Positions 29,627-50,963 of a DNA stretch of 64,000 nucleotides are shown here, in pieces. Numbering within the stretch: position 1 is the stretch's first letter; each line of letters starts with the position of its first letter. The DNA comes from an uncultured candidate division Zixibacteria bacterium (lineage in GTDB: Bacteria > Zixibacteria > MSB-5A5 > GN15 > FEB-12), in contig CAWDXE010000001.1 in NCBI GenBank assembly GCA_963806185.1, positions 640,001 to 704,000 on the forward strand, read 5' to 3'. The notes below the pieces were generated by a model that worked only from the letters and a program-made list of their open reading frames with translations, did not search any database and was not told the DNA's origin. The position numbers were made by a program, and so were the translations under genes.

Positions 29627-29647
29627 GTTCGATATATGTCGAACAAT
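29624..29647. promoter_or_regulatory. ArsR/SmtB-type operator (11-2-11 inverted repeat)
   Basis: ATTGTTCGATA-TA-TGTCGAACAAT with one mismatch, overlapping the -10 box and the arsR start codon. Confidence 0.72.
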
Positions 29648-29992: not shown

Positions 29993-30008
29993 GAGACGGA
30001 GGATCGAC

Positions 30009-30605
30009 GTGGACGATAACGGTAATTTCAATCAACCCGGTTGCTGTGAAGATGGCCAATGCTGCCCGCCAACACCAAGCGGCGAAAGTCGTAGGCCTGG
30101 CCTATGGAAAATCTGGATTTTCTCGGGGGTAATTCTGCTGGCGTGTACCGTGGCGGCGTATTCTTTGTTTTGGCGAAGCGACAAGACAGCGGCTTCGGCC
30201 TGTTGCCCGCCTGGTTCAGCAGCGGCTGCCGCGTGCGGCCAGGCCGCGACCAATCCCGGTTTCGACCACACGGCTGCCCCGATTGGTCTGTCACTTGTTG
30301 TTCTAACTAAAACAGGTGAGGCACTCTCCGGTGAAAAGCTGGCCATGATCGGCGAAGTGCGGACGTCCCTTGAGTCACATGACGCACGACTGCAATTCGA
30401 AACGCTTGAGTCAGGAGACACCGCCTTCCTGAAGCTCGTGAATCAGTATGGAATTACCGCACTTCCCGCGGTGATCGTGACGGGGCAAGACAAAGTCCTC
30501 GTGCTCAGTGAAAGACAGGTAAACGCCAATACGATCCTGAGCGTCTTCAATCCAGTCCCGGCGTCAGCCGCAACTGATTCAACGTCAAAGAGCGGATCAC
30601 TGTAG
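30009..30605 (+). CDS. Membrane-anchored Cys-rich protein with a possible thioredoxin-like C-domain
   Basis: GTG start after GGAGG; 'GCCEDGQCCPP', TM helix, 'ACCPP..AC', C-terminal 'LVNQYGITALPAVIV' (cis-Pro loop-like). Confidence 0.6.
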   Translation: MDDNGNFNQPGCCEDGQCCPPTPSGESRRPGLWKIWIFSGVILLACTVAAYSLFWRSDKTAASACCPPGSAAAAACGQAATNPGFDHTAAPIGLSLVVLTKTGEALSGEKLAMIGEVRTSLESHDARLQFETLESGDTAFLKLVNQYGITALPAVIVTGQDKVLVLSERQVNANTILSVFNPVPASAATDSTSKSGSL

Positions 30606-30610
30606 GAAGG

Positions 30611-31312
30611 ATGTCGATGGACTGGGTTGAACAGGTGCTGAAATCCTCGAGTTTCACCTTCGCCGCACTTCCCGCAGCCTTGGTACTCGGTCTTTTCACT
30701 GCGGTAACGTCCTGCTGCAATTTTGGAGTAATCGCTGCCGTCGTTGGCTTCGCAGGTAGTCGCGACGAAAGTCATAGTCGGCAAGATGCTCTATTCACGA
30801 CTATTGCCTTCACGCTTGGTACCATCGTTTCACTTTCCCTCATGGGGCTGGCGATCGGGCACATCACTGGGTTGGCAGGAACGAGTCTCCAACGGTACGG
30901 TACCGGTTTCATGGGCTTTGCCCTGATTTTCGCGGGGCTGGCGGCACTGAGGGTTCTGCCATTTCGTCTCCCATCCGTGGACTTGTCGAAGGTAAAGCGG
31001 CCAAGCGATCGCGCTGGCTCTACTGCATTTGGATTGGTGATAGGTACGGCGAGCATAGCTTGCACGATGGCCTGTTGCGGACCTCTTCTGCCGCTGGTGT
31101 TTGGTATGAGTGCCGCGCACGGGGGAGCACTTTGGGGTGCTGCCATCCTCGGCTTGTTCGCGATAGGATACAGTTTCCCCTTGGCTGCCCTGATGCTTGG
31201 CGTGGGTCTGGGAAGAACGATGGCAATCGCTCAGAAGGCAATCAAACCCATTCGCATGATAGCCGGAATAGGACTTGTCGCCGTCGGCTTCTGGCTGCTG
31301 GCGACTATGTAG
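30611..31312 (+). CDS. CcdA/DsbD-like transmembrane thiol-redox protein
   Basis: Six hydrophobic segments; 'LGLFTAVTSCC' and 'ACCGPLL' Cys motifs; 'LFAIGYSFP'. Confidence 0.72.
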   Translation: MSMDWVEQVLKSSSFTFAALPAALVLGLFTAVTSCCNFGVIAAVVGFAGSRDESHSRQDALFTTIAFTLGTIVSLSLMGLAIGHITGLAGTSLQRYGTGFMGFALIFAGLAALRVLPFRLPSVDLSKVKRPSDRAGSTAFGLVIGTASIACTMACCGPLLPLVFGMSAAHGGALWGAAILGLFAIGYSFPLAALMLGVGLGRTMAIAQKAIKPIRMIAGIGLVAVGFWLLATM

Positions 31313-31324
31313 GCACGTATAAGC

Positions 31325-32482
31325 ATGACCGATTCAAAAAGGTGCGACAAAGAAATTCGTATTGCAGGATGCTGCAACCCTCAGGTGGAAATCGTGAAGC
31401 TCGTTGATCGCCAGCCCGTGCCCATCTCAGAGCCGATTCCAAGGCTACCTTGGATAATCGGGGCGATGGAAACTCCAGCTGGTAAGGTCCCGGTTGTCCG
31501 ATCGAAATTGCAGCCAGCCGATATATTTGGCTCGTGGAAAGCGCGCTGGGGTATTCGACGCATGAGCTATCGTATTCGACCGCGTCTCTATGCAGTCGGC
31601 AATCCTACGGACGTTTCTCCAGTATTCGTGACCGCCAACTACAAGATGAGCTTTGACCGCCTGCGATCGCAGCTCGATGGAATCGACGGGTGGATTTTGG
31701 TACTCGACACCAAGGGAATCAACGTCTGGTGCGCTGCCGGTAAAGGCACGTTCGGGACGGCCGAGCTCATGAACCGACTCGAAGCCGTAGGCCTCAAGAA
31801 GATAGTCTCTCATCGTAGATTGATTGTCCCTCAACTCGGCGCCACCGGCGTCAGCGCACACATAGTTCGCGAGGGGAGTGGTTTTCATGTCTTTTACGGT
31901 CCCGTGCGTGCCAGGGACATTCGCGTTTTCATGCAAGCGGGAATGAAAGCGACTCCCGACATGCGACGCATCACCTTTACTTTCACGGAGCGCATCGTCC
32001 TCGTACCGGTCGATATTGTGGGCAATCTCAAATACGCACTCTTCGCCGCCGCCTGTCTTCTTCTTCTGTCCGGATTAGGGGCGAACTGGTATTCCCTCGA
32101 CCGCGTGGCTAAGTATGGTCTGACCAACGCGGCATTGGTGGTGTTGGCGGTGCTTTGCGGTGCCGTTCTGCCCGCGGTATTGGTCCCCTGGTTACCCGGC
32201 CGGGCGTTTTCGGTTAAGGGGGCATTCGCCGGAATTGTCCCGATGCTTGGCCTGGTGTTTCTCCACTGGCTGCACCCGGAAATCTTCCGCAGTTGGCTGA
32301 ACTATGCGAGTTGGCTCCTCTTCTTCCCGGCACTATCCAGTTTCATTGGCATGAATTTCACGGGCAGCTCAACGTACACGTCGCTGTCGGGCGTCAAGAA
32401 AGAGATGCGCGTCGCCCTGCCAGTGCAAATCGGCGCGGCCGTGTGCGGCTTGGTACTGTGGATCACAGGATTATTCGTATGA
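31325..32482 (+). CDS. hgcA: Mercury methylation corrinoid protein HgcA
   Basis: Cap-helix motif 'TKGINVWCAAGKGTFG', 'VTANYKMSFD', 'PQLGATGV', 'GPVRA.DI', C-terminal TMs with 'NFTGSSTYTSLSGVKKEM'. Confidence 0.97.
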   Translation: MTDSKRCDKEIRIAGCCNPQVEIVKLVDRQPVPISEPIPRLPWIIGAMETPAGKVPVVRSKLQPADIFGSWKARWGIRRMSYRIRPRLYAVGNPTDVSPVFVTANYKMSFDRLRSQLDGIDGWILVLDTKGINVWCAAGKGTFGTAELMNRLEAVGLKKIVSHRRLIVPQLGATGVSAHIVREGSGFHVFYGPVRARDIRVFMQAGMKATPDMRRITFTFTERIVLVPVDIVGNLKYALFAAACLLLLSGLGANWYSLDRVAKYGLTNAALVVLAVLCGAVLPAVLVPWLPGRAFSVKGAFAGIVPMLGLVFLHWLHPEIFRSWLNYASWLLFFPALSSFIGMNFTGSSTYTSLSGVKKEMRVALPVQIGAAVCGLVLWITGLFV

Positions 32483-32775
32483 GAACAATGTATCTTCCTG
32501 AAGTTGTCACTCTCGAATTCTATGTCGAGAAATGCAATGGGTGCGGCATGTGTGTTCAGGTTTGTCCGCACGCCGTCTTTGCAATCGAGAATAAACGAGC
32601 AAAGCTCATAGATCGCGATGCCTGCATGGAATGTGGCGCCTGCGCCTTGAATTGCCCGGTAGGTGCGATTAGCGTTAGAGCGGGAGTCGGCTGTGCTGCG
32701 GGTATTTTGAACGGAGCACTGCGTGGAACTGAACCCACTTGCGATTGCGGAGAGGACACGGGGAATTGCTGCTGA
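32479..32775 (+). CDS. hgcB: Mercury methylation 2[4Fe-4S] ferredoxin HgcB
   Basis: 'CNGCGMCVQVCPH', 'CMECGACALNCP', 'GVGCA', C-terminal 'CDC..CC'; ATGA overlap with the hgcA stop. Confidence 0.96.
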   Translation: MRTMYLPEVVTLEFYVEKCNGCGMCVQVCPHAVFAIENKRAKLIDRDACMECGACALNCPVGAISVRAGVGCAAGILNGALRGTEPTCDCGEDTGNCC

Positions 32776-36480: not shown

Positions 36481-36915
36481 GTGCTATTTTCAAAAGGGTG
36501 TACCTACGCAATTCGAGCCGCCCTGCTTGTCTCGGTCAAGGAGACTAGTGACGGGCGGAAGTTCATCCCTATACGTGAGCTCGCGGACGAACTGGAACTC
36601 TCCTTCCATTTCCTCACCAAGATCATGCAGGTGCTCACCGAAGCACGGATTATGGAGTCGTTTCGCGGTCCGAACGGTGGCGTCGGTCTGGCCCGACCAG
36701 CCAGGGAGATCACTCTTGTGGATGTCATCGCGGCTGTGGACGGCATGGCCCTCTTCAAGGAGTGCGCCCTGGGACTCCCGGGTTGCGGTGAAAGAACCCC
36801 CTGCCCGCTCCACGTAGCCTGGGCAAAACGGCGCGAAGATCTGAAGCGGATGTTTGAAAAAACAACGCTGGCAAGCCTCGCGAAAGATTTGGATACCAAC
36901 TCATTTAGGAACTAA
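36481..36915 (+). CDS. Rrf2-family Fe-S transcriptional regulator
   Basis: 'YAIRAAL', 'FLTKIMQ.L', 'SFRGPNGG..LARP..EITL.DV..AVDG', 'CALGLPGC..PCPLH'. Confidence 0.9.
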   Translation: MLFSKGCTYAIRAALLVSVKETSDGRKFIPIRELADELELSFHFLTKIMQVLTEARIMESFRGPNGGVGLARPAREITLVDVIAAVDGMALFKECALGLPGCGERTPCPLHVAWAKRREDLKRMFEKTTLASLAKDLDTNSFRN

Positions 36916-37646: not shown

Positions 37647-39560
37647 ATGCTTCAAGGTAAACGACTGGTGCCGGCTGGATTTGTTCTTCTGCTGGCAATT
37701 GGGCTGGGTTCCGGCTGCTCCAGGAAACAGGAAGCGGGCGGTTTCGGCGACGCCGCCGCAAAAGTGTATGTGGCGCCGGGCAGCTACGACGAGTTCTATG
37801 CCTTCATGTCTGGTGGCTTCAGTGGTCAAGTCTCGGTGTATGGACTGCCGTCCGGAAGGCTCTTGAAGGTTATTCCGGTGTTTGGGCAGGATCCGGAGAA
37901 GGGCTACGGGTACTCCGAGGAAACAAAACCACTCCTCATGACCACGCACGGATTCGTTCCGTGGGATGATGCGCACCATCCTCAGCTGTCGATGACCGAT
38001 GGGCAGACGGATGGCCGATGGCTCTTCATCAATGGTAACAACACGCCGCGAATTGCACGAATCGATTTGACTACCTTCGAGACCGTTGAGACAATTGAAA
38101 TACCCAATTCCGGCGGTAATCACGGCTCACCGTACCTGACCCCCGGCACGGAGTATGTTGTCGCATCGACCCGCTTCAGCGTGCCCATCCCGCAGAAAGA
38201 CGTACCGATAAGTTCCTACAAGGAGAACTTCAAGGGAACTATCTCCTATGTCAAAGTGGATTCGGCCACCGGTCGAATGAAGATCGCGTTCCAGATTCTG
38301 GTTCCGGGAATCAACTATGACCTTTCGCGTTCCGGCAAGGGCCCGTCATATGGCTGGTCGTTCTTCACTTCCTATAATACAGAACAGGCCAATACCCAGC
38401 TTGAAGTGAACGCCTCGCAAAACGACAAGGACTTTGTGGCGGCTGTTAACTGGAAGCTGGCCGAACAGCTGATCGCGCAGGGAAAAGGGCAGATCTGGAA
38501 AGCACCGCATTATCACAACTATATGGACAGCGCGGATGTCGGTAAGAGCGAGGTGATCTCTGAAGTTCCGATGCTTGTCGCCAAGGACAACCCGGGACTG
38601 GTCTATTTTCTTCCGACGCCCAAGTCGCCGCACGGTTGTGATGTCGATCCGTCGGGAGAGTACATCGTGGCCTCCGGAAAACTGGCGGCCCTCATTCCGG
38701 TGCACTCCTTCAGCAAGTTTCAGACAGCGGTCGCAAACAAGGAATTCGACGGAGAATTCGACGGCATTCCGATTCTCAAATATGAATCGGTATTGGCCGG
38801 TGAGGTGAAGGAGCCTGGTCTCGGGCCGCTGCACACCGAGTTTGACGGCAAAGGTTTCGGTTATACCTCGATGTTCCTCTCTTCCGAAATCGTCAAGTGG
38901 AAGATCGGGACGTGGGAAGTGGTCGATCGCATACCGACCTATTACTCCATCGGGCACCTGATGATCCCCGGCGGCGACACGAAACAGCCGTACGGCAAGT
39001 ATGTCATCGCCCTCAACAAGATCACCAAGGATCGTTACCTGCCAACCGGTCCCGAGCTTGCACAGGCGGCGCAACTGATCGATATCAGCGGCGACAAGAT
39101 GAAACTGCTGCTCGATTTTCCGACCATTGGCGAGCCGCACTATGCGCAGGCCTGCCCAGCGTCACTTATCAAGGATAAGTCGGTTCGCTGGTATCCGATC
39201 GAAAATAACCACAATCCATACGCAATTCATGCTGAAGGAGAGGCGCGGGTGGAACGGGATGGACGGAACGTGCACGTCTATATAAGCACCATACGCACTC
39301 ACTTTGCCCCTGACAACATCGAGGGGGTCAAGGTCGGAGACAAGGTCTATTTCCACGTTACCAACCTGGAGCAGGACTGGGATGTGCCGCACGGCTTTGC
39401 GGTCATGGGCTCGAACAACTCGGAGTTGTTGATTATGCCCGGCCAGACACGGACTATCCTGTGGGAGCCTAAGGAAGTCGGCGTGATCCCGTTCTACTGC
39501 ACCGATTTCTGCTCCGCTCTGCATCAGGAAATGCAGGGTTGGATTCGCGTGTCGATTTGA
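37647..39560 (+). CDS. nosZ: Clade II (Sec-dependent) nitrous oxide reductase
   Basis: Lipoprotein-type signal with no RR motif; 'SGGFSGQ..VYGLPSGR', CuZ His motifs DAHH, GNHG, SPHG, PLHT, EPHY; CuA 'CTDFCSALHQEM'; GGAGG RBS. Confidence 0.97.
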   Translation: MLQGKRLVPAGFVLLLAIGLGSGCSRKQEAGGFGDAAAKVYVAPGSYDEFYAFMSGGFSGQVSVYGLPSGRLLKVIPVFGQDPEKGYGYSEETKPLLMTTHGFVPWDDAHHPQLSMTDGQTDGRWLFINGNNTPRIARIDLTTFETVETIEIPNSGGNHGSPYLTPGTEYVVASTRFSVPIPQKDVPISSYKENFKGTISYVKVDSATGRMKIAFQILVPGINYDLSRSGKGPSYGWSFFTSYNTEQANTQLEVNASQNDKDFVAAVNWKLAEQLIAQGKGQIWKAPHYHNYMDSADVGKSEVISEVPMLVAKDNPGLVYFLPTPKSPHGCDVDPSGEYIVASGKLAALIPVHSFSKFQTAVANKEFDGEFDGIPILKYESVLAGEVKEPGLGPLHTEFDGKGFGYTSMFLSSEIVKWKIGTWEVVDRIPTYYSIGHLMIPGGDTKQPYGKYVIALNKITKDRYLPTGPELAQAAQLIDISGDKMKLLLDFPTIGEPHYAQACPASLIKDKSVRWYPIENNHNPYAIHAEGEARVERDGRNVHVYISTIRTHFAPDNIEGVKVGDKVYFHVTNLEQDWDVPHGFAVMGSNNSELLIMPGQTRTILWEPKEVGVIPFYCTDFCSALHQEMQGWIRVSI

Positions 39561-39577: not shown

Positions 39578-40738
39578 GTGAAACCTGACATTCCAATAGG
39601 CGATCCCGCAAATGCCGCGGGGTCGCTTGCCCGGTCGAACCCCCGTCATGACGGTGCGGGTCGGCGCCGGCGCATGCATCCCGGACTGCGAGTGCTGCTG
39701 GCTGTTGCTGCTCTGCTGCTGTCTCTCACCTACTTCTTTCCGCTTTGGGAGATATCGTTGGACGCTCCCCAGTATCCGGAGGGGCTCGGCCTGGAGATTT
39801 GGATCAATCAGATGCAGGGGCAACACCCGGGTGATCTGAACAAGATCAACAATTTGAATCATTATATAGGGATGAAGCACATCCAGCCGAAATCCATTCC
39901 GGAGCTGAAAATCATGCCCTGGATTATGCGTGGCGTGATGATTATTGGCCTCATAGCCGCAGCGACCGGACGACGATCGATTCTGATACTCTGGCTCCTC
40001 GTGTTCCTGGTGATGGCCATTGCGGGGCTCGTTGATTTCTATATGTGGGGGTATGATTACGGGCACAATCTCGACACGCAACATGCCATCATCAAGGTCC
40101 CGGGGATGAGCTATCAGCCCCCGTTGATCGGCTCCAAGAAATTACTGAATTTCAAGGCGATCTCACTTCCGGGTATCGGGGGATGGTTTGCCATCGCTTC
40201 GTTCGTCATTGGTGCTTTGATCTGGCTGTATGATCGGAGGCGATTCGGTCGCCGAGCTCGGGTCACAGCGGGTGCGATGGCTGGGGTAACAGTGGGTCTG
40301 ATGTTCCTGCTCGCACTCGGCTGCGGTACAACCGGACCGACGCCCATTCAGTATGGAGTAGACCAGTGCGATTACTGCAGGATGACCATCGCGGACCGGA
40401 GATTCGGCACAGAATTGATCACCGACAAAGGAAAGTCGCACAAATACGATTCTATCGAGTGTCTTGCCGCCGCCGAGTTGAAGTCGGCACAGGATGCAAA
40501 GAAGATACGCTCTCAGTGGGTGACCGACTTTGCACATCCGGGAACCTTCCTGGACGTGCGGGCCGCTACGTTCGTTGCCACCGAGCGGCAAAAGAGTCCC
40601 ATGGGCGTGGGACTAGTTGCGGTTGGCACAGACTCCGACGCCGCTGTTCTCATACAATCGGTGGGCGGAGCCGTGGTCGACTGGAACGGCGCAAAGCGCC
40701 TGGTGGCAGAAACATGGAAACTCTCGGAAGAAGAATGA
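39578..40738 (+). CDS. nosL: NosB-like membrane protein fused to NosL copper chaperone
   Basis: N-part 'PLW.I.L.APQYPEGL..INNLNHYIGMK', 'WGYDYGHNLD..YQPPLIG.K.LLNF'; C-part 'CDYCRMTI', 'YDSIEC', 'SPMG'; start could also be the ATG at 39674. Confidence 0.85.
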   Translation: MKPDIPIGDPANAAGSLARSNPRHDGAGRRRRMHPGLRVLLAVAALLLSLTYFFPLWEISLDAPQYPEGLGLEIWINQMQGQHPGDLNKINNLNHYIGMKHIQPKSIPELKIMPWIMRGVMIIGLIAAATGRRSILILWLLVFLVMAIAGLVDFYMWGYDYGHNLDTQHAIIKVPGMSYQPPLIGSKKLLNFKAISLPGIGGWFAIASFVIGALIWLYDRRRFGRRARVTAGAMAGVTVGLMFLLALGCGTTGPTPIQYGVDQCDYCRMTIADRRFGTELITDKGKSHKYDSIECLAAAELKSAQDAKKIRSQWVTDFAHPGTFLDVRAATFVATERQKSPMGVGLVAVGTDSDAAVLIQSVGGAVVDWNGAKRLVAETWKLSEEE

Positions 40739-42027
40739 GGCGTCGGATGTCGCGCGATTCTCGGCTCTTCCCGCTGTCATTTCGCCGGCTGATTATCCTG
40801 TTCTGGATCAGCGGCGCAATAGAACTCCTGGGATCTTTCGACAGTAATGCGTCCACCATTCACGTGCAGCCTGCCGGTCATGTGCGATCGATCGCCGAAG
40901 CGATCGCCGGGGCCTCCCCAGGCGACACCATACGAGTCGCCGCCGGACGCTACGAGGAATTCGACCTGCACATCACCAAGCCGATGACGCTGCTTGGTCA
41001 GGCCTGGCCGGTCATTGATGCGAACGGACGAGGTCCTATTTTCGAGATAACCGCCCCGGGGGTGACTGTCTCGGGCTTTGAGTTACGCGGTGTGCCGGTG
41101 AGTTTTGTGAAAGAGTATGCCGCCATCCTTGTGAGCAACTCAGCCGATTGTGAAATTCGCGGCAATCGCTTCATTGACGATTTCTTTGCCGTCTATCTGG
41201 CAAAATCCCAGTTTTGCCGCATTCTTGACAATGCAATCACGGGATCAGCGAAGGAGCTCACCACAGCCGGCAATGGCATCCATCTCTGGAGTTGCTCCAA
41301 CATCGATATTACCAACAACGTGATTCGGGGACACCGTGACGGCATCTACTTCGAATTCGTGACCCACAGCGCGATAGTGAACAACTCGAGCGAAGACAAC
41401 CTCCGATACGGATTGCACTTCATGTTTTCGGATACCTGCCGGTACGAACGGAATCGCTTCATTCACAACGGGGCCGGCGTCGCCGTTATGTATACGGATT
41501 TCGTCGACATGATCGACAACACCTTCGAGGACAACTGGGGTGGCGCATCCTACGGCCTGCTCCTGAAGGATATCAAGGCCAGCCGGGTGCTTCACAATCA
41601 GTTCACGCGCAATTCAATCGGAATCCACATGGAAGGCTCGGATTACGTTCACATTGAAAGGAATCGTTTTACCGCCAACGGATGGGCCATAAAGATCATG
41701 GCCAACTGCGTGCAAAGTTCGATTGAACAGAATGACTTCATCGACAATTCCTTTCAGGTAGCGACCAACAGCCGTCACACCTTCAGCAGCTTCTCGGGCA
41801 ACTACTGGAGCCCGTACTGTGGCTTTGATCTGGATCGGGACGGGTATGGTGATGAGCCCTACCGTCCGGTAAGCCTTTACAGCTTATTGGTGGAGTCGGA
41901 TCCATCCACGCTCGTGTTAGTGCGAAGCCTGCTCATCGATGTTCTGAATCTGGCTGAACGAATGGTGCCGACCTTCACTCCGGAAGCGCTGGTTGATACC
42001 AAACCGCGCATGAGGCCCGTTACATGA
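40735..42027 (+). CDS. nosD: NosD periplasmic maturation protein
   Basis: CASH beta-helix 'GNGIHLW', 'HRDGIYFEF', 'RYGLHFMFS', 'GNYWS.Y.G.DLD.DGYGD.PYRP'; ATGA overlap with the nosL stop. Confidence 0.93.
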   Translation: MRRRMSRDSRLFPLSFRRLIILFWISGAIELLGSFDSNASTIHVQPAGHVRSIAEAIAGASPGDTIRVAAGRYEEFDLHITKPMTLLGQAWPVIDANGRGPIFEITAPGVTVSGFELRGVPVSFVKEYAAILVSNSADCEIRGNRFIDDFFAVYLAKSQFCRILDNAITGSAKELTTAGNGIHLWSCSNIDITNNVIRGHRDGIYFEFVTHSAIVNNSSEDNLRYGLHFMFSDTCRYERNRFIHNGAGVAVMYTDFVDMIDNTFEDNWGGASYGLLLKDIKASRVLHNQFTRNSIGIHMEGSDYVHIERNRFTANGWAIKIMANCVQSSIEQNDFIDNSFQVATNSRHTFSSFSGNYWSPYCGFDLDRDGYGDEPYRPVSLYSLLVESDPSTLVLVRSLLIDVLNLAERMVPTFTPEALVDTKPRMRPVT

Positions 42028-42734
42028 TTGAGATCAGTCGCCTGCATAAACGTTTCGGACGATTCGTGGCGCTCCATGAGATTGACCTTTTCATCGAACG
42101 CGGAAAGGTTACCGGAATTATCGGACCCAACGGTTCGGGCAAATCTACGTTGATGAAATCATTGCTTGGACTGGTGACGCCGACGTCGGGCACCATCACC
42201 ATTAATGGCTATCTCCTGAATGGTGCGAGTGATTACCGCCGGTCGTTGGGGTACGTACCACAATTGGCTCGCTTCCCCCTGGATCTGACGGGACGGGAGG
42301 TTATTGACGTAGTCAAGGGTCTGCGGGATGAGGGCGCTCGCTTGGAGTCGGAACTCATTCGCCTATTCGGCCTGGAGTCGGAGATCTCGAAGCGGGTGCG
42401 GGCAATGTCGGGTGGTACCCGCCAGAAGCTGAGTGTGGTACTCGCCTGCATGTATGACCCTGCTCTGCTGATCTGCGATGAGCCTACGGCCGGACTCGAT
42501 CCAATTGCGAACACCCGACTGAAAGATCTGTTGCTCTCTTTGAAAGAGAAGAAACGGACCGTGCTCATCACAACCCACATCATGAGCGATTTGGAAGAGG
42601 TCGCCGACAATGTCGTGGTTCTGCTCGAAGGTCGAGTTCGCTTTGCCGGTGCGATCCGAGAATTGAAGCTGGCGACCGATGAACCACGCCTCGAGGCAGC
42701 CGTAGCCCGCCTGCTGGAAAAGGGGGCCGCGTGA
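42024..42734 (+). CDS. nosF: NosF ABC ATPase
   Basis: Walker A 'GPNGSGKST', signature 'MSGGTRQK', 'DEPTAGLDP'; between nosD and nosY. Confidence 0.92.
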   Translation: MIEISRLHKRFGRFVALHEIDLFIERGKVTGIIGPNGSGKSTLMKSLLGLVTPTSGTITINGYLLNGASDYRRSLGYVPQLARFPLDLTGREVIDVVKGLRDEGARLESELIRLFGLESEISKRVRAMSGGTRQKLSVVLACMYDPALLICDEPTAGLDPIANTRLKDLLLSLKEKKRTVLITTHIMSDLEEVADNVVVLLEGRVRFAGAIRELKLATDEPRLEAAVARLLEKGAA

Positions 42735-43522
42735 AATTGACTATGCACATGGCCTGGTACGCGATCCGGGACCTCATGCGTAATCGCTGGGGTCTGCTCT
42801 ACACGGCGTTCTTTGCGGTGCTCACCGTCGGCCTGTTCCAACTGCAGGCGCAATCGGCCAAGGTTGCCGTCAGCCTCATGAGTATCTGTCTTTTTCTCAT
42901 CCCGCTGGTCGCTTCAATATTCGGTACGATCTATTTCTACAATTCGCGTGAATTTGTAGAACTGGTATTGACTCAGCCGGTTGCTCGCAGAACTGTCTTT
43001 CTCGGTATGTTTCTGGGGTTGTCGTTCGCTCTGGTAGCCGGATTTGTTCTCGGCGTTGGTATTCCCACAGTTATATTGGGCGACTGGTCGAGTGGCCAGC
43101 TTGTCTCAATGACTCTTCTGTTAACGGTTGGTTCACTCCTGACCGTCATCTTCCTGGCTATCTCATTCTTGCTGGCGATCATTTTTGATGATCGGGGCAA
43201 GGGGCTGGCCGCAGTGCTGGCGGTCTGGCTCTTCACCGCTCTCGTGTACGACGGGCTGGTGCTATTAGCCGCCATGACTTTCTCGGATTATCCGCTCGAA
43301 ACGCCACTCCTGGTGGCCTCAATGGCCAATCCGATCGACCTGGCGCGGGTTACCTTGCTCATTCAGACGGATTGGGCCGCTCTCATGGGCTACACCGGAG
43401 CCGTCTTCAATCGCTTTTTCGGGACAGCTCTCGGAGTTACGATTGCAGCAATTTCGTTGGGACTCTGGACGGCGGTGCCGTTACTCGCGGGCATTCGGAA
43501 GTTTAGACTCAAAGATCTTTAG
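42731..43522 (+). CDS. nosY: NosY ABC permease
   Basis: 'IPLVASIFGTIYFYNSREF.EL.L.QP', 'YDGL', 'NPIDLARV..L..D..ALMGYTGAVF'. Confidence 0.9.
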   Translation: MKLTMHMAWYAIRDLMRNRWGLLYTAFFAVLTVGLFQLQAQSAKVAVSLMSICLFLIPLVASIFGTIYFYNSREFVELVLTQPVARRTVFLGMFLGLSFALVAGFVLGVGIPTVILGDWSSGQLVSMTLLLTVGSLLTVIFLAISFLLAIIFDDRGKGLAAVLAVWLFTALVYDGLVLLAAMTFSDYPLETPLLVASMANPIDLARVTLLIQTDWAALMGYTGAVFNRFFGTALGVTIAAISLGLWTAVPLLAGIRKFRLKDL

Positions 43523-43593: not shown

Positions 43594-45096
43594 ATGCAAT
43601 TGATGCAGTCAGCGAAGAATATGATTAATCGGCTGAAGACGGCACATTCACAGAGCGTCGCATCACTCTACTTACTCACCTTCGGCCTTTTCACACTCGT
43701 CGGTGCCTGTGCGGCTCTGGCGATGCAGCTCGAGCTCTGGAGTGCTTCCTCAACATTGTTCAGTGGCCAGCTATTTGCGCGCCTGCTCACCCAGCACGGT
43801 ATGGTGATGACCTTCGTCGTACTCATACCCCTGATCCCGGCAGTGCTCGGCAACTTCATCTTGCCGTCAGCTGTGGGCTCGCGCGACATGGCCATGAGGA
43901 GATCAAACATAGCCGGTTGGTTTATGCATCTGGTCGGCGCCATTGCGATAGTTGTGGCAGTGGAGTTGGGTGCTTATGACACCGGCTGGACCATGAACAC
44001 GCCGCCCGGTTCGTCAAAGAGCTTCCAGTTGCTCATCGTCGGTCTTGGCCTGATTGCCGTGTCCACCCTTTTGCTCAACCTCGCGATTGCCAGAATCGTT
44101 CTGTCGCGCAAGTATCGCACCATACCTCTCGGTAAGCTTCCGGTACTGGCATGGTTCTTCCTGATCGGCTCTTTGGTTGTACTCATTGTCAGCCCGGTGC
44201 GGATCTTCACGCTGGCACTGTTGTCTCTTCACCAATTTGGCCACACGCCGGTCTTTTCGCTGCTGGACGCCGGCGGCATCATTCGGTATGAACACCTGTT
44301 CTGGGCTTATGCGGGACCGGCGACTTATGCCGCTGTCCTTCCGGCACTGGGCGTCACTTTTGAGGTTCTGGCCGCTTGTGCCGGCACTCCTTTGTTTGCC
44401 CGTCGCGTCGTCATCGTGGCTGCTGTCATATTGGGTCAGCTCGGCCTGGTTTCGTGGGGTCAGCACCTGCTTGTAACAACTGATTCGGAGCTGTTGGCAT
44501 TGACCGGCAGCCTGTTCGGTTTGCTTACTGCCGTTCCGACCTCACTGATACTCCTGAGCTGGTTGATGATGTTGTCTCGGGCAAGAAGTTGGCAGTCGGT
44601 TCCGCTGCTGATCACCTGGCTCCAGACTAGTCTCATAGCACTCGGCGGGCTCGCAGGGATCGTGCTTGCTATTCCTTCGACAGGTCTGACATTTCACAAT
44701 AGTTATTTGACAACCGGCCATCTCCACCTGGTCGCCCTTGGCCTTGTCCTTCTATCATTCCTGGCCGGTCTCATCCACTGGTGGCCTTCCTTCATGCAAA
44801 GGCGCATCGCGCCCGCGGCCGGACGGGCCGTCGCTATCACCATCGTGGTTGGGATCATGACGACTTATCTCCCCATGCTCATCAATGGTGTCGGGGGATC
44901 GCCGAAAGCGCTCAATGTCTATCCCGTTCAATATGAACCGATGCACATGGTATCGACCGCCGGTACGGTCATCCTTCTGGCGGGTCTGCTTGGCGCCGTA
45001 TGGCTTTTTGCTCGAGGCATTCTTGGTGGAAGATTGTCGACTCAGTCAGTAAGGACAGTCTCAAGTGGTGAAGTTGTCTTCCTCGATATACAGTAA
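43594..45096 (+). CDS. Divergent heme-copper oxidase subunit I homolog lacking two CuB ligands
   Basis: About 12 TM with 'QHG..M.F', 'LGNF.LP..G.RDMA', 'GWT', 'HNSY..GHLH'; canonical YSHPxVY and WxHH appear as YAGPATY and WGQH. Confidence 0.85.
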   Translation: MQLMQSAKNMINRLKTAHSQSVASLYLLTFGLFTLVGACAALAMQLELWSASSTLFSGQLFARLLTQHGMVMTFVVLIPLIPAVLGNFILPSAVGSRDMAMRRSNIAGWFMHLVGAIAIVVAVELGAYDTGWTMNTPPGSSKSFQLLIVGLGLIAVSTLLLNLAIARIVLSRKYRTIPLGKLPVLAWFFLIGSLVVLIVSPVRIFTLALLSLHQFGHTPVFSLLDAGGIIRYEHLFWAYAGPATYAAVLPALGVTFEVLAACAGTPLFARRVVIVAAVILGQLGLVSWGQHLLVTTDSELLALTGSLFGLLTAVPTSLILLSWLMMLSRARSWQSVPLLITWLQTSLIALGGLAGIVLAIPSTGLTFHNSYLTTGHLHLVALGLVLLSFLAGLIHWWPSFMQRRIAPAAGRAVAITIVVGIMTTYLPMLINGVGGSPKALNVYPVQYEPMHMVSTAGTVILLAGLLGAVWLFARGILGGRLSTQSVRTVSSGEVVFLDIQ

Positions 45097-45119: not shown

Positions 45120-45740
45120 ATGAAGAAAGCATCCGGGCCCCGCACATCTCTCATCCAGGTTCTGGTAGAAGAACACCGACACATCAAGCTAGGCTTGTCC
45201 ATTCTCAACGCCATGCACAAACGCATAACAAGACGCCTTGCCGTCCCCCCGGCAGACCTCGCGACATTGGTCCGCTTCATAAGTGAGTACGCCGACAAGA
45301 TTCATCACCACGGCGAAGAGGAACTGCTGTTCCCGGCGCTGGAGCGGACGTCCAATCGGCAATTGAAGCAGATGGCGGGAAAACTGGGGACTCAACATCT
45401 CATGGGTCGATTATTTGTGAGTGAGATGAAGGATGCCCTCAGGGAGGCTCGGACCAATCGAAGAGGTTGGCGGAACTGCTTTCTGGAGAACGCCAGGGCG
45501 TATCACACACTGCTGACTATTCATATCTGCGATGAAAACAATATGTTCTTTCCGTTGGCCGAGAAAGCACTCAGTCGTGCGAAGGCGACTGTAGGGTCTA
45601 CTCCCGAGGCATTGGCTCCAAGTAAGAAGAGATGGGAAGCGCGTGTGGAGCGGCTGTACCAAAAGTACTGTCCAGGGGTCTCATCTCCCTGTGGCGGCGG
45701 GTCGTCGACGGCCAGCTGTGATTGCGAGAATCGAACCTAA
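45120..45740 (+). CDS. Hemerythrin (HHE) domain protein
   Basis: 'EEHRHI', 'YADKIHHHGEEELLFPAL', 'QH..GR', 'HICDENNMFFPLAE'; GGAGG RBS. Confidence 0.85.
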   Translation: MKKASGPRTSLIQVLVEEHRHIKLGLSILNAMHKRITRRLAVPPADLATLVRFISEYADKIHHHGEEELLFPALERTSNRQLKQMAGKLGTQHLMGRLFVSEMKDALREARTNRRGWRNCFLENARAYHTLLTIHICDENNMFFPLAEKALSRAKATVGSTPEALAPSKKRWEARVERLYQKYCPGVSSPCGGGSSTASCDCENRT

Positions 45741-45992: not shown

Positions 45993-48926
45993 ATGGAAGG
46001 TGTTAAGGGAAGACCGTCTGCTCACGTCGGCCGGCAATTGCTGCTATTCATCACGCTTGTCGCTCTGGTCGCAACGTCAGTCATCGCCAATAGCGCGATT
46101 GACCCCGTAGGCGCAGGCAGTATCAGCGGAACGGTGGTTGATGCACAGTCGGGCGAGCCTCTTGTTGGCGTCAGTGTGGCGGTGAACGGCACGAAGCTGG
46201 GCGCCATGACTGATCCGGACGGGCGATTCATGGTCCGCAGCGTTCCCGCGGGCCAATACGCTCTTACGGTTTCGTCAATCGGATATGCCAGGCTCTCGAT
46301 CACTGAGCTCACCCTAACGGACCGTCAGTTAATACAATTGTCCCTGAAACTCACTCCTGAATCTGTTCGACTACACAATGAAATCACGGTCACGGCAAGA
46401 GCCCTGCGCAATACCGAGGCTTCATTGCTCAAGCAACGCCGGCAATCGCAGACGGTCACTGACGCTATCAGCAGCGACGAAATGTCCCGGTCTGCCAGCG
46501 GCAATGCAGCGTTGGCGATGACCAAAGTGGTTGGCGCATCCCTGGTGGCCGGCAAATATGTGTATGTCCGCGGACTGGGCGATCGTTACGGCAATACGCA
46601 ACTCAACGGCAGCCAGCTCCCCAGCCCAGATCCGGAGAAGCAGGCGGCGCCGCTGGACCTCATTCCTTCCGGTCTGCTCGACAACATCGTCGTAACCAAG
46701 AGTTTCAGCCCGGATATGTCAGGGAATTTCACCGGCGGTAGCGTGAACCTGACGACTAAAGACTTTCCCGAGTCTCGGACCATGTCGTTCAGCGCCGGCA
46801 GTTCCTATAATACGCTCTCTACTTTCGAAAATGGGTTGAGTTACTCAGGCGGCAAGCGCGACTGGCTCGGCTTTGATGATGGCTCGCGCGACGTGCCGAG
46901 CGTTCTGCAGGATCCGGACAACATCGCCAGGATGCCGAATGGCCGCGTGATCTTCAAGGATAGCGCCCAAGCTCACCTGGTCGACCAGGCATCTCGCGCT
47001 TTCAGCAAGCAACTCACTCCGACCAAGACGCAAGCGCCTCTCAACCAGAGCTACAGCTTCGCTTTTGGAAATACCTATCAGATGTTCGGTCGTCCGCTCG
47101 GGCTGACCAGCAGTCTTTCCTATACGCGTAACCACACCTATTATGAAGGCGGTCAGCGCAACTTCTACGAGGCCGCGGAAATACAGCCCGGCCAGGTGAT
47201 CCTTGAGCCGCAGGACATCTTTACCGACTCCCGCAGTACTGACGACGTACTGTGGGGAACGCTGGGTGGTATCACCTTCAGTCTGGCCCCCAATCACAAG
47301 ATTGGCGTAAACATCGTTTACGATCGCAGCGGTTCCTCAGAGGCGCGGTATCTTCAGGGATACTCGCTCGAACGGGCCGACAGCAACACGATCTATCGGT
47401 CCCGCGTACTCGGCTACACCGAACGCACCCTGTCCACAGTGCAGCTTCGGGGCGAGCACATTTTCAAGCATGTTCGTCCATCTTGGCAGATCAGCCGCTC
47501 CAATATTCGCGAGGAGCAGCCGGACCTTCGCCAGTCACCGGACGAGTATTATATCGATCGCGAAAGTGACCCGATCGATACCTTTTATCAGTTCGGCTCC
47601 AACTACGCCCCGCCGGCCCGATTCTGGCGCAATACCCACGAAACCAATGATGAGTACAAGCTCGACGTGGCCGTGCCGGTAAGCCATCGCTTGAATTTCA
47701 AACTGGGGTCCAATTACCTTGAGAAGTCCCGCACCAACCGCCAGACACAGTTTAACCTGATCGAAAGCTCACTGCGGTACAACGATTACGGCGACTTTGA
47801 CGAATATCTTCAGCACGCCGGACTCATCGACAGCGTCTCGCTGGACAACCCACGCACGCCGGAAATAGAACCCGGTTATCGATACACCTTTGCATCGTAC
47901 TGGACAAACTCGACATTCCTTCGCGATCAGTACGACGCGTATCAAAAGATCAACGCCAATTACATCATGGCCAACTTCGAGGTTGCGGGACCATTCACGC
48001 TCAGTGGCGGCATTCGGTACGAAAATACGCTCATGAAATCACAGAACCAGGATCCGGCTTCAAGGACCGGATTCATTCACCAGACAGACTGGCTACCGGC
48101 AGTGACACTCAAGTACCAGATCTCCGAAGCCATGAATGCCCGTTTGGCCTACGGCCGCACCTTGGCCCGACCCAGCCTGCGCGAAATGTCGGCCTTTTCA
48201 ACGGAGGAGTTCGCCGGCGCTCGCTTCTTCTCGGGCAATCCGGATCTCAAAATCACCAGGGTCAGGAATTACGACCTGCGCTGGGAATGGTATCAACGGC
48301 CTGGAGAGATATTGGCGGTCAGTGGCTTCTACAAGTCATTCACCAATCCAGTCGAGATTCGGTATTTCGGCACCAACGGTGAGCGGCAACCGGCCAACGT
48401 CGACCGAGCCAAAAGCGTGGGTGCGGAATTTGAATTTCGCAAACGTCTCGATCAGTTGTCCGGAGGGCTTCGACACTTCGAATTGGGCGGAAACCTGACG
48501 CTGGTCCATAGCGAGGTTTCGATTCCCGACGGCGAACTCGCGCTCATGCGCATGCTCGACCCGACCGCCGAAGCCACTCGACCAATGGCCTATCAGTCGC
48601 CCTATGTAGTCAACGTCAGCCTCAGCTACTCACACGACCGCCTCGGCCTGAGCACGGCCGTCTACTGCAATATCGTAGGTCGTCGTTTTTACTACAACTC
48701 GTCGAACCAAACTCCCGATGTCTACGAACTCGGCCGCACGTCGTTGGATATCACGGCCTCTCAGCGTCTGATGGGCGGCATTTCTCTGAAAGTTGCCGCC
48801 AGGAATCTGACCAATGACGATTTCCGTGCCGTCTACCTGCAAACAGGCAGCAATGCCCAGTCCGTATTCGAGCAGCGTGATCTCGGCCGTACTTATTCAT
48901 TCGGCCTGAGCGCCCAAGTCTTCTGA
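45993..48926 (+). CDS. TonB-dependent receptor with N-terminal carboxypeptidase-regulatory-like domain
   Basis: 'GTVVD..SGEPL.GV.V..GT..G..TD.DGRF', plug 'YVRGLGDRY..LNG..PSP..PLDLIP', 'GNPDL', C-terminal F; exact start uncertain. Confidence 0.92.
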   Translation: MEGVKGRPSAHVGRQLLLFITLVALVATSVIANSAIDPVGAGSISGTVVDAQSGEPLVGVSVAVNGTKLGAMTDPDGRFMVRSVPAGQYALTVSSIGYARLSITELTLTDRQLIQLSLKLTPESVRLHNEITVTARALRNTEASLLKQRRQSQTVTDAISSDEMSRSASGNAALAMTKVVGASLVAGKYVYVRGLGDRYGNTQLNGSQLPSPDPEKQAAPLDLIPSGLLDNIVVTKSFSPDMSGNFTGGSVNLTTKDFPESRTMSFSAGSSYNTLSTFENGLSYSGGKRDWLGFDDGSRDVPSVLQDPDNIARMPNGRVIFKDSAQAHLVDQASRAFSKQLTPTKTQAPLNQSYSFAFGNTYQMFGRPLGLTSSLSYTRNHTYYEGGQRNFYEAAEIQPGQVILEPQDIFTDSRSTDDVLWGTLGGITFSLAPNHKIGVNIVYDRSGSSEARYLQGYSLERADSNTIYRSRVLGYTERTLSTVQLRGEHIFKHVRPSWQISRSNIREEQPDLRQSPDEYYIDRESDPIDTFYQFGSNYAPPARFWRNTHETNDEYKLDVAVPVSHRLNFKLGSNYLEKSRTNRQTQFNLIESSLRYNDYGDFDEYLQHAGLIDSVSLDNPRTPEIEPGYRYTFASYWTNSTFLRDQYDAYQKINANYIMANFEVAGPFTLSGGIRYENTLMKSQNQDPASRTGFIHQTDWLPAVTLKYQISEAMNARLAYGRTLARPSLREMSAFSTEEFAGARFFSGNPDLKITRVRNYDLRWEWYQRPGEILAVSGFYKSFTNPVEIRYFGTNGERQPANVDRAKSVGAEFEFRKRLDQLSGGLRHFELGGNLTLVHSEVSIPDGELALMRMLDPTAEATRPMAYQSPYVVNVSLSYSHDRLGLSTAVYCNIVGRRFYYNSSNQTPDVYELGRTSLDITASQRLMGGISLKVAARNLTNDDFRAVYLQTGSNAQSVFEQRDLGRTYSFGLSAQVF

Positions 48927-49211
48927 TTAATGGAAAACGAACAGAACATGCATACAACTCTACCTTCTCGCGGCCAACTTGTCACGCGTAAACCAGCCCT
49001 CAGCGGAATGCGGGGGAACTGGGCGCGTGCAACACGAAATACGGCTGCGCACTCGAGAGCCAAGCGACAGTCGCAACCCGCGCGGTTTTCATCGATGGAC
49101 AGGCCCACGGGCCGGAAATAGGAGGTAGATGATTTCGCACTTGCAGAATAATTCGACTGGACGAATTGGCTTATTGGGTCACACAATTCACAGTAGCGGA
49201 GGATACATTTC

Positions 49212-50963
49212 ATGTTGCGTAAAGCTCTCTTGACGTTCACGCTCCTGCTCGCACCGGCGTTCGCCTTTGGACAGGTGTCCGAGGCCGGCAAACCGGTCAA
49301 GCAGGTATTCGACGCCGACATAGTCGGCGCAATGACTTTTCACGCGGACACCGTTTATGTCCTGAATGGATTTGTCTTTGTCGACTCCGGCGAAGTGCTC
49401 ACCGTTCAATCCGGCACCATCATCAAGGGTCAGCCGGGCACGGGCGCCAACGCCACCGCGCTGATTGTCTCGCGTTTCGGCAAGCTCATGGCTGCCGGTA
49501 CACAGTCTGCGCCTATTATCTTCACGGCTCTCTCTGATGACGTGGATAATCCGACTGATCTGCCCGACGATGCCTCATCGAAGGGTCTCTGGGGTGGCGT
49601 CGTTCTCCTGGGCCTGTCGCACATAAGTGTGGCCGGCGACTCAAATTTTGTGGAGGGTATTCCTGTCGCGACCTACGGCGCTCGCATAGCCTACGGTCCG
49701 GGGAGTAGTTACACTGGCAATGATGACGATAATTCCGGCGTCTTGCAGTACGTGTCCATCCGCTATCCCGGTTCCGTATTGGCGCCCAATAACGAGATCA
49801 ACGGTCTGACGTTTGGGGCAGTGGGTCGCGGAACCACCATCGACCACATTGAGGTGTTTTATTCGGCGGATGATTCCTACGAGTGGTTTGGCGGTACCGT
49901 CAATTGCCGCTATCTCGTATCTGCTTTTGACGACGATGACGCGTTTGACACGGATGAAGGGTATCGCGGCGTGCGCCAATTCGTGTTCGAGATAAAAGAC
50001 CCGCGCTGGGGTGACCGGCTGACCGAAAACGACGGCGGTAACGCCAATTGTTTCTCGTGCACGCCGTATGCGCGGGCGGTTTTGGCCAATGCCACCATGA
50101 TAGGACAGGGAGCCTCCGGTTCAAGCGGTGGCACACGCGACCGCATGACTTGGCGTGACTACGCCGGCGCGTACATTTATAACAACATATTTACCGAGGT
50201 TCCGAAAGATTTCTTGGAGATCGAAGTAAAGGGTGGCGATGCAGGCATCGATGGAATCACATCCTCGACTCGCTGGTTGCCGAGCGGCCAGGGTTCGCTG
50301 GTCGATTTTGCGGGAACACCGCAATTCGATTTCGTGAAGAACTTCTTCTTCAAGGCAGGCAACGCCGGCCCGACCCGCCAGCGGATTTACGCAACCGGGG
50401 ATTCAACCACGGCTCCGTTGTCAACTTCCCGCGTCCGAAGCGACATCTTCACCGCCGGTGACACGACCATCACCGGTAAGAATCAGGTGCTGGATCCAGA
50501 AATCCAGTTTATCGATTGGACCCGCAGTCAATTGCTCGATCCCCGTGTCAAGACGACCGGTCCGGCCGCAACCGGAGCCGCTGCGGTTCCGGCATACGCT
50601 GACCCCAGCGGGTTCATTCAACCAGTTACCTATCGCGGTGCCTTTGATCCGAGCCAATCGCTCACTTCCAGCTGGATTTGGGGCTGGAGTTTCCTCTCCT
50701 TCGGCGGTTTCCTGAATCCGACGGGTGGCGGTTGCTGCATCGCCAACGTGGGGAATGTCGATAACGACCCTGGGGATCAAGTCGATATCGGCGACTTGAC
50801 AGCCCTGATCAACAACCTGTTCATCACCTTCGAGCCAATAGCTTGCGTAGCCGAAGCCAATTGCGATGGCGACCCAGGCAACAACATCGACATCGGTGAT
50901 CTTACCGCCCTGATCAACAACCTGTTCATTACCTTTGATCCGCTTCCTGCTTGCCAGAACTAG
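49212..50963 (+). CDS. Secreted beta-helix protein (usual TonB-receptor partner type) with dockerin-like CTD
   Basis: Signal peptide; 'PIIFT', 'WGGVVLLG', 'DNSG.LQYV.I.Y.G...NEINGLT.G.VG.GT.IDHIEV..DD..EWFGG'; CTD. Confidence 0.82.
   Translation: MLRKALLTFTLLLAPAFAFGQVSEAGKPVKQVFDADIVGAMTFHADTVYVLNGFVFVDSGEVLTVQSGTIIKGQPGTGANATALIVSRFGKLMAAGTQSAPIIFTALSDDVDNPTDLPDDASSKGLWGGVVLLGLSHISVAGDSNFVEGIPVATYGARIAYGPGSSYTGNDDDNSGVLQYVSIRYPGSVLAPNNEINGLTFGAVGRGTTIDHIEVFYSADDSYEWFGGTVNCRYLVSAFDDDDAFDTDEGYRGVRQFVFEIKDPRWGDRLTENDGGNANCFSCTPYARAVLANATMIGQGASGSSGGTRDRMTWRDYAGAYIYNNIFTEVPKDFLEIEVKGGDAGIDGITSSTRWLPSGQGSLVDFAGTPQFDFVKNFFFKAGNAGPTRQRIYATGDSTTAPLSTSRVRSDIFTAGDTTITGKNQVLDPEIQFIDWTRSQLLDPRVKTTGPAATGAAAVPAYADPSGFIQPVTYRGAFDPSQSLTSSWIWGWSFLSFGGFLNPTGGGCCIANVGNVDNDPGDQVDIGDLTALINNLFITFEPIACVAEANCDGDPGNNIDIGDLTALINNLFITFDPLPACQN

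Follow-up and report, generated by a model that had tools for sequence, protein, structure and literature searches.

A conserved CuB-less paralog of A2-type oxidase subunit I encoded downstream of nosY in Zixibacteria

What is the role of a cytochrome oxidase subunit I without its copper site in an operon for nitrous oxide (N2O) reduction? The question is raised by a gene on a 64,000-nucleotide stretch of DNA from an uncultured candidate division Zixibacteria bacterium (assembly GCA_963806185.1, contig CAWDXE010000001.1, positions 640,001–704,000 of the forward strand; hereafter, the window). The gene, coxL, follows nosY in a clade II nos operon and encodes a CuB-less paralog of the A2-type heme-copper oxidase (HCO) subunit I, for which CoxL is our own name. 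CoxL represents a real, conserved and apparently undescribed family of pseudo-oxidases. The literature searched, which lay mostly outside subscription papers, yielded no report of nos operons with a CuB-less A-family subunit.

Fold, descent and cofactor ligands of CoxL

The coxL open reading frame (ORF; 43594–45096, + strand) encodes 500 residues and is uninterrupted by stop codons. It starts 71 nt past the nosY stop codon and is followed, 23 nt past its end, by the ATG codon of a hemerythrin gene. A scan of the neighbouring genes found no subunit II or III gene, and the sole CoxB match of the genome at an E value of 1e-10 is located at C1:519.7–520.7 kb, ∼160 kb from coxL. The ORF reading and the neighbour scan confirm the intact, solitary gene described in an original prediction made from the window sequence. 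The G+C content of coxL (0.558 overall and 0.643 at third codon positions) is similar to that of the nos genes (0.54–0.56 and 0.64–0.68, respectively). A promoter and terminator scan returned 3 promoter-like sites (5.6 expected) and 13 terminator-like sites (8.1 ± 3.3 expected), neither of which rises above the level of shuffled sequences, and placed none between nosY and coxL.

CoxL is a paralog of the A-family subunit I proteins. PF00115 is the sole Pfam family matched, and the TIGR02891 score of 277 bits lies under the curated threshold of 670.75. The best profile matches are CtaD/CoxA, and all 41 matches of the CoxL family profile to solved structures are A-family chains. An AlphaFold2 model built on a 36-sequence alignment contains 12 helices (predicted local distance difference test score of 88.3 and predicted template modelling score of 0.90) and superposes on A-family subunit I structures with template modelling (TM) scores of 0.84–0.89. 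In trees built without B-family, C-family or nitric oxide reductase (NOR) sequences, the CoxL family forms a single clade on a long stem among A2-type CoxA (SH-like approximate likelihood ratio support of 100). The protein is A-family-derived and, as originally proposed, is not an already characterised NOR.

Residue conservation was counted in 36 aligned CoxL family sequences, some of which are near-duplicates, and in 11 canonical CoxA sequences. The gene and its diagnostic positions are as follows.

43594..45096, + strand: coxL, CuB-less A2-type heme-copper oxidase subunit I paralog; 12 membrane helices predicted, PF00115 at 234.9 bits
43726..43728, + strand: Gln45; Q in 29 and L in 7 of 36; R in 11/11 canonical
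43795..43797, + strand: His68, first low-spin heme ligand; 36/36
44200..44202, + strand: Arg203 in helix V, invariant; R in 36/36, L in 11/11 canonical; aligns with yeast L203
44314..44316, + strand: Gly241 at the CuB/cross-link His position; G in 29 and N in 7 of 36; His in 11/11 canonical
44461..44466, + strand: Gln290-His291 at the CuB His-His pair; position 290 Q 29, R 3, M 3, E 1; position 291 H 28, N 5, S 3
44719..44721, + strand: His376, high-spin heme ligand position; H 26, Q 7, M 3 of 36; H in the window
44725..44727, + strand: His378, second low-spin heme ligand; 36/36
44902..44910, + strand: Pro-Lys-Ala in place of PRR; position 439 A/G/S/N in 36/36; position 438 K 16, R 16, S 3, Q 1
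45067..45081, + strand: C-terminal GEVVF, variant of the family tail motif GE[F/I]xY, which co-occurs with the hemerythrin gene

Relative to the aligned canonical CoxA, the window CoxL retains the heme ligands H68, H376 and H378 together with H291, D98 and the cross-link tyrosine Y245, whereas H240 is replaced by G241, H290 by Q290, K319 by isoleucine and the PRR motif by PKA, with the loss of one propionate Arg. The losses named in the original prediction (the CuB/cross-link His, the change to WGQH, the K-channel Lys and PKA) and the retention of the heme His residues and D98 are therefore present in the alignment of the window copy. Across the family, H68 and H378 are accompanied by the further invariant residues M72, W237, Y371, P437 and H451. 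The cross-link His is absent from all 36 sequences, Tyr245 is kept in four and the K-channel Lys (K319) in none; in the D-channel, D98 is found in 10, N87 in 24 and N105 in 26 sequences. Replacements of His376 are confined to two separate clades. Asn291 and Gln376 occur together in five sequences, which thus lack both His residues, and Ser291 is combined with Met376 in three more. Because H376 is present in 26 and D98 in 10 of the 36 sequences, the diheme character and the kept D-channel entry Asp of the original prediction do not generalise; the latter holds for the window copy and has no family meaning. No conserved acidic or other substitute ligand for the second metal was seen in the 36 sequences. 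CoxL is likely unable to reduce O2 or NO, as the original prediction had argued and as known ligand rules support.

The family has also fixed new invariant residues, among them L147, L151, P361 and R203. By an inferred yeast-to-Rhodobacter offset, Arg203 would occupy the position of Leu246 of Rhodobacter sphaeroides, which is counted among the O2-channel-forming residues in PMC4256069. The best-kept parts of CoxL are helices I–III and the periplasmic loops over the hemes (loops 3-4, 9-10 and 11-12), and these loops reach 0.69–0.81 of canonical conservation. Among canonical-invariant positions, CoxL keeps 9 of 20 in the low-spin pocket, 3 of 12 in the binuclear pocket and 20 of 113 elsewhere in the helices, with the membership of the two pockets being assumed.

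Distribution of coxL and composition of its operon

A profile search of 285 Zixibacteria genomes placed 26 loci, the window included, above the canonical score band. The 25 other high-scoring loci, two odd matches and two canonical controls were fetched and inspected. Most canonical-band matches were uninspected and 23 matches unlisted, and further degenerate copies may exist among them, so the counts are lower bounds. Further loci from two other searches agree and were left out as possible duplicates. The CoxL family comprises at least 28 loci in at least 25 genomes, of which the main family accounts for at least 27 loci in at least 24 genomes and a diverged copy in G127 for the remainder. 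All 28 loci found follow nosY directly, in G137 with one gene between, which bears out the predicted linkage to nos genes. The intervening gene (L072:8528–10420) encodes a TonB-receptor-like protein with a CPNRM motif, whose best match, the TonB copper receptor family, scores 58.5 bits, far below the cut-off of 472.

CoxL is full-length at 26 of the 28 loci, with identity within the main family down to 31%. Three genomes (G005, G010 and G085) contain two nos-coxL clusters each. Both G005 copies, one of which is the first odd match and also lies downstream of nosY, are damaged; one is shortened and one is joined in frame to hemerythrin by a deletion. A functional CoxL–hemerythrin fusion in G005 was considered and rejected, because the in-frame deletion removes the first helix of hemerythrin together with a portion of helix XII. 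The G127 copy (L086:9371–10846) is a far more diverged CoxA paralog with the first CuB His and the Tyr kept and a WGQH motif. It is followed by Rrf2, hemerythrin and qNOR genes, and its place in the tree, on a long branch, is unsure.

The nosZ gene occurs in 42 of the 285 genomes, 25 with coxL, 13 with a cluster that extends past nosY without coxL and 4 with a cluster that is cut off. Nine of the 13 coxL-less clusters are of the same type as those with coxL, and four represent a second clade II type (L097 of G257, L098 of G239, L099 of G144 and L100 of G256); in two of the 13, <1 kb of contig is left. Upstream of its nosZ, the second-type cluster of G257 has, as checked with Pfam, genes for a Rieske protein, cytochrome b and multiheme cytochrome c; ORFs resembling these are seen in the other three clusters. 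A domain of oxidase subunit IV is joined to the nos cytochrome c in three basal clusters (COX4_pro; L086:2776–3549 in G127, L088:1813–2595 in G115 and L089:15184–15951 in G284), and the G284 cluster lies directly downstream of an operon joining alternative complex III (ACIII) to caa3 oxidase. coxL is thus an accessory, dispensable part of the nos cluster.

As far as searched, the CoxL family is found in one phylum only and always downstream of nosY. None of 351 genomes drawn from the G289 phylum had a match to a DNA motif representing the WG[Q/E]H type, although the motif is non-exhaustive, matching the window and many family loci and missing G127. No fused CoxL forms (929–2650 residues) were found at an E value of 1e-40 among 7991 candidates, which is weak evidence. 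The ESM Atlas returned generic COX1 clusters alone, and the closest homologs that bear a name carry the label Candidatus Zixiibacteriota.

In the window, coxL stands between nosY and the hemerythrin gene in a co-directional run headed by an Rrf2-type regulator gene. The other members of the run are as follows.

36481..36915, + strand: Rrf2-family regulator with three Cys in its C-terminal half; TIGR00738 above cut-off, PF02082
37055..37597, + strand: monoheme cytochrome c, probable lipoprotein; PF00034, lipoprotein signal by sequence inspection
37647..39560, + strand: NosZ, clade II (Sec-dependent); TIGR04246 at 931.7 bits, cut-off 625; ATG chosen within a longer ORF
39578..40738, + strand: membrane protein (NosB-like) fused to NosL; PF05573 at residues 262–370
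40747..42027 (start approximate), + strand: NosD; TIGR04247 at 410.6 bits, cut-off 300
42024..42734, + strand: NosF, ABC ATPase; ABC ATPase families, named by position and synteny
42731..43522, + strand: NosY, ABC permease; PF12679, named by position and synteny
45120..45740, + strand: HHE hemerythrin; PF01814, di-iron ligand pattern intact

The N-terminal 220 residues of the NosL fusion protein matched no family, and the NosB-like label for this part is assumed without a Pfam match. The window nos cluster contains neither nosR nor nosGH. Downstream of the run, positions 45993–50963 contain genes for a TonB-dependent receptor and a 583-residue secreted protein with a repeated C-terminal motif and no Pfam match; these genes are not kept downstream of coxL at other loci. 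Positions 29636–32775 encode, in series, a regulator, a DsbD-like membrane protein, a CdhD-domain protein (385 residues, GINVWCAAGKG) and a ferredoxin, the last two of which we take to resemble the hgcA-hgcB mercury-methylation pair.

The window genome encodes its own respiratory oxidases. A canonical A2-type caa3 operon is joined to ACIII and accompanied by heme A and heme O synthase genes. A cbb3 operon (C4:405–412 kb) and a hemerythrin–qNOR pair (C1:783–786 kb) are both frameshifted in the assembly, which suggests sequencing errors because several neighbouring C4 genes are also split. In this 82% complete assembly, neither a NirK match nor a NapH/NosH match above the cut-off was found. A canonical-band CoxA match is present, among the matches listed, in 22 of the 25 CoxL hosts; in the CoxL host G007 (89% complete assembly), no canonical A-family CoxA was seen.

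Among the 27 main-family loci, 21 have a gene for a single-domain HHE hemerythrin after coxL, its start codon frequently overlapping or abutting the coxL stop codon; none of the nine same-type nos clusters without coxL has this gene. The hemerythrin residues H19, H62, H63, E66, E67, H93, H135 and E139 are invariant in 22 aligned sequences. The CoxL tail motif GE[F/I]xY is conserved as protein sequence and is found in all 20 intact tails that accompany this hemerythrin and at none of the six family loci without it; the window tail reads GEVVF. Five of these six loci adjoin another hemerythrin-domain gene of the RIC or DUF438 type, and four of the six motif-less copies form one clade. GE[F/I]xY may have been inherited from canonical CoxA, whose tail has a Glu-Trp motif. 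A role of the underlying DNA as a ribosome-binding site was rejected, as synonymous positions vary and the motif lies 15–19 codons upstream of the stop codon. A DUF438 hemerythrin gene also adjoins nosY without coxL in G115.

Selection was estimated by the Nei–Gojobori method as the ratio of nonsynonymous to synonymous rates (dN/dS). For coxL, dN/dS ranges from 0.07 to 0.25 in the 15 closest pairs (dS of 0.19–1.05) and from 0.14 to 0.15 between the window and its three nearest relatives (dS of 1.4–1.5). The highest values (0.16–0.25) belong to the clade in which most ligands are lost. Where measurable in the same 15 pairs, dN/dS is 0.01–0.06 for nosZ, 0.05–0.11 for nosD and 0.11–0.25 for the hemerythrin gene. 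Selection on coxL is purifying and looser than that on the core nos genes, and the homologs are unlikely to be decaying, as the original prediction had anticipated.

CuB-incomplete paralogs also occur outside the CoxL family. Among 213 aligned proteins from outside it, 65 (P0041–P0179; a few are fragments) lack one or more CuB His residues, and His376 is replaced by Gln in 18 of them. Three appear to be fused to a subunit III-like region, one by Pfam (P0053, COX3) and two by inspection (P0057 and P0087). No copper-binding domain was found in the 16 longer degenerate paralogs scanned. The second odd match (L081:7810–9312 in G081) is a CuB-less CoxA paralog of this kind that is not next to nos genes and has, by inspection, a thioredoxin-domain protein and a ferritin-like protein as neighbours. 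A profile from 30 other degenerate paralogs also scores canonical CoxA highly. These ∼60 further A-family paralogs suggest that such ghosts arise repeatedly.

Proposed role of CoxL in N2O reduction

We tentatively favour, with somewhat less than even confidence, a role for CoxL as a one-heme membrane redox relay serving NosZ. CoxL would be a selectively maintained duplicate of an A2-type subunit I that has lost the O2-reducing copper site. It would bind a single bis-His heme near the periplasmic face, and the second heme site of the window copy is likely vestigial. The canonical Arg at position 45 presumably contacts the heme A formyl group. Mutagenesis of this formyl-contact Arg indicates that its change would favour a formyl-free heme of lower potential. 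Since the Arg is replaced by Gln or Leu, the CoxL heme is probably heme B or O with a lowered potential. CoxL would relay electrons to the upstream-encoded N2O reductase, feeding it or helping to maintain its activity, and CoxL may act as a booster rather than a requirement because related nos clusters lack coxL.

A bis-His heme without a catalytic site or a proton path, in a nos operon without nosR or nosGH, points to a redox helper of NosZ comparable to what has been proposed for NosR and NosGH. A relay is also favoured by the place of all 28 loci after nosY, by the invariance of H68 and H378 where the binuclear ligands vary, by the better-kept low-spin pocket and periplasmic loops, and by the ACIII next to the caa3 oxidase of the genome. 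The Rieske and cytochrome b genes of the coxL-less second-type cluster in G257, with similar ORFs in the other three, also favour an electron relay. For Methylacidiphilum, a nos cluster within ACIII genes is reported (bioRxiv 10.1101/2024.01.15.574570). Together with the cytochrome c–subunit IV fusions and the adjacency of ACIII-caa3 in G284, this arrangement indicates that nos electron supply is tied to oxidase parts. In an extended and rather unlikely form of the relay, the CuA domain of NosZ, a homolog of oxidase subunit II, would dock on CoxL at the place of that subunit, and electrons would run backwards, from heme to CuA, in an ACIII–CoxL–NosZ supercomplex. If true, a cytochrome oxidase chassis would carry a terminal complex for N2O reduction.

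Several observations weigh against a relay to NosZ. The low-spin ligands H68 and H378 are kept in 59 and 58, respectively, of the 65 CuB-incomplete paralogs outside the family, so their retention is what any such duplicate shows, and the CoxL heme may be merely structural. The most eroded parts of CoxL (0.32–0.42) are helix IX and loops 5-6 and 7-8, taken here to be the contact sites for subunits II and III of canonical oxidases, and one of the two Arg residues on what we assume to be the canonical CuA-to-heme route is lost in 36/36 sequences. An entry point for quinol electrons was not evident among the polar residues of helices I–II in the 36 sequences, as positions 63 and 67, assigned from the site of bo3/aa3-600-type quinol oxidases, vary and helix I has no conserved Asp or Arg. 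coxL lies downstream of the maturation genes and is coupled with the gene of a cytoplasmic hemerythrin, not with that of the cytochrome c. The nine same-type clusters without coxL show no visible replacement, and a NosD+NosF+NosY tree of 38 loci (G067, G083 and one G005 copy excluded) requires five gains or losses of coxL. Finally, dN/dS of coxL mostly exceeds that of nosD, nosF and nosY of the same pairs.

The hemerythrin gene raises the possibility, which we hold to be unlikely but worth stating, that CoxL and hemerythrin together guard the O2-sensitive NosZ against O2 or NO, with the cytoplasmic CoxL tail anchoring the di-iron protein and the heme at His376, where kept, binding the gas. The coupling of the two genes, the match between the tail motif and hemerythrin, and the other hemerythrin-domain genes next to five of the six remaining loci agree with a guard, as do the Rrf2 regulator at the operon head and the pairing of another hemerythrin with qNOR in the genome. 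A gas-binding heme acting with hemerythrin had been suggested originally; the coupling stands, and the heme-based binding is weakened, since His376 is Gln or Met in 10 of 36 sequences, genome copies with that change retain hemerythrin, and the invariant Arg203 replaces the O2-channel Leu. Moreover, single deletions remove neighbouring genes together, the motif-less copies are mostly of one clade, the tail motif may be inherited, and G115 has its DUF438 hemerythrin by nosY without CoxL. A redox-silent scaffold is a little less probable than a guard. With a purely structural heme, CoxL would form an assembly with oxidase subunits III/IV or Nos membrane proteins and so hold cytochrome c and NosZ next to ACIII. 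Such a role is in line with the subunit III-like fusions of other CuB-incomplete paralogs, the subunit IV fusions of the nos cytochrome c in G115, G127 and G284, and the canonical-band CoxA matches, among those listed, of 22 of the 25 hosts. It also accords with the retention of R103, W187 and G95, which we presume to lie near the subunit III lipid cleft. An ‘eNOR scaffold protein’ provides a precedent in name in bioRxiv 10.64898/2026.01.22.701106. A scaffold is difficult to reconcile with the loss of periplasmic loop 5-6, which is conserved in canonical enzymes (0.07 identity to canonical), with the operon lacking a subunit III or IV gene, with the gain of family-specific invariant residues including the buried Arg203, and with the host G007, in which a canonical A-family CoxA is not visible.

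The position of coxL downstream of nosL-D-F-Y allows CoxL to be viewed as a membrane cupric reductase that provides NosL with the Cu(I) from which the NosZ copper centres are built, and PMC6530538 describes NosL as a Cu(I) chaperone. The copper-receptor-like gene between nosY and coxL in G137 is consistent with copper supply. This role is nevertheless improbable, given that the 36 sequences contain no conserved Cys and a single new conserved Met (M134, 35/36), that the longer degenerate paralogs scanned lack copper-binding domains, and that a cupric reductase meets the same electron-donor problem as a relay. Slow decay of a dispensable duplicate carried as a passenger at the operon end would explain the repeated loss of coxL, the stepwise erosion of ligands between clades, the two damaged copies in G005 and the highest dN/dS in the most ligand-poor clade. 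The dN/dS values of all 15 pairs and of the window largely refute decay, and 26 of 28 copies are full-length despite the low identity and have fixed new invariant residues, making this explanation very improbable. Least probable, with only a slight chance, is that CoxL is a novel reductase that turns over NO or O2 at an unconventional second-metal site. The window copy retains H291, H376 and Y245, and gNOR tolerates one His replacement according to PMC11214002. Two of the three CuB His residues are lost in CoxL, however, one of them to Gly, without a conserved substitute ligand; eight sequences lack both H291 and H376 (five Asn/Gln and three Ser/Met), the K and D channels are lost, and the genome has separate caa3, cbb3 and qNOR genes.

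A relay to NosZ would bear on an unsettled point, the electron route to clade II NosZ in clusters without nosR or nosGH, for which CoxL is a concrete candidate in hosts that are N2O sinks. The CoxL family also offers a natural series, from two hemes to one and with hemerythrin present or absent, in which cofactor roles in an oxidase scaffold can be dissected. In addition, the annotations of named CoxL homologs read ‘cbb3-type cytochrome c oxidase subunit I’ or ‘cytochrome c oxidase subunit 1’, by which O2-respiring capacity is overstated.

Comparison of CoxL with known systems

CoxL shares the 12-helix fold and the low-spin ligands with A-family subunit I (CtaD/CoxA; PF00115, TIGR02891; PDB 1ar1, 2gsm, 1occ and 2yev), as well as W237, Y371, Y443 and the Tyr of the A2 ‘YS’ motif (Y239). 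It differs from the A-family oxidases in the absence of two CuB His residues, the K-channel Lys, the formyl-contact Arg and Arg439, in an optional high-spin ligand and a variable D-channel, and in an operon without subunit II or III. Unlike the bo3/aa3-600-type quinol oxidases, CoxL lacks the quinol-site residue pattern.

The HCO NO reductases (cNOR, qNOR, bNOR, eNOR, sNOR, nNOR and gNOR), together with putative NOD and N2O-reductase families, are of B/C-family descent and have three metal-binding His residues, as described in PMC11214002 (Murali et al. 2024). In the same paper, gNOR, with one His replaced by Asp, is presented as the first family in which even a single active-site His is exchanged. 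CoxL has in common with the HCO NO reductases the superfamily, the linkage to genes of nitrogen-oxide respiration and a non-conserved cross-link Tyr, but it is A-family-derived and has at most one second-metal His and no conserved acidic substitute. The putative HCO N2O reductase family is near cNOR, to which CoxL is not close by profile and structure matches.

The non-catalytic eNOR scaffold protein and the lone ctaD kept beside ctaB in Acetobacter (PMC5158111) are, like coxL, genes of unknown role beside working respiratory or heme-synthesis genes; in these sources, neither is reported in a nos operon. NosR of clade I and NosGH of clade II are membrane redox proteins proposed, in PMC13685413, to transfer quinol-pool electrons and to maintain NosZ in an active state. 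Their role is possibly like that of CoxL, although their folds and flavin/Fe-S cofactors are unrelated to CoxL, which matches PF00115 only.

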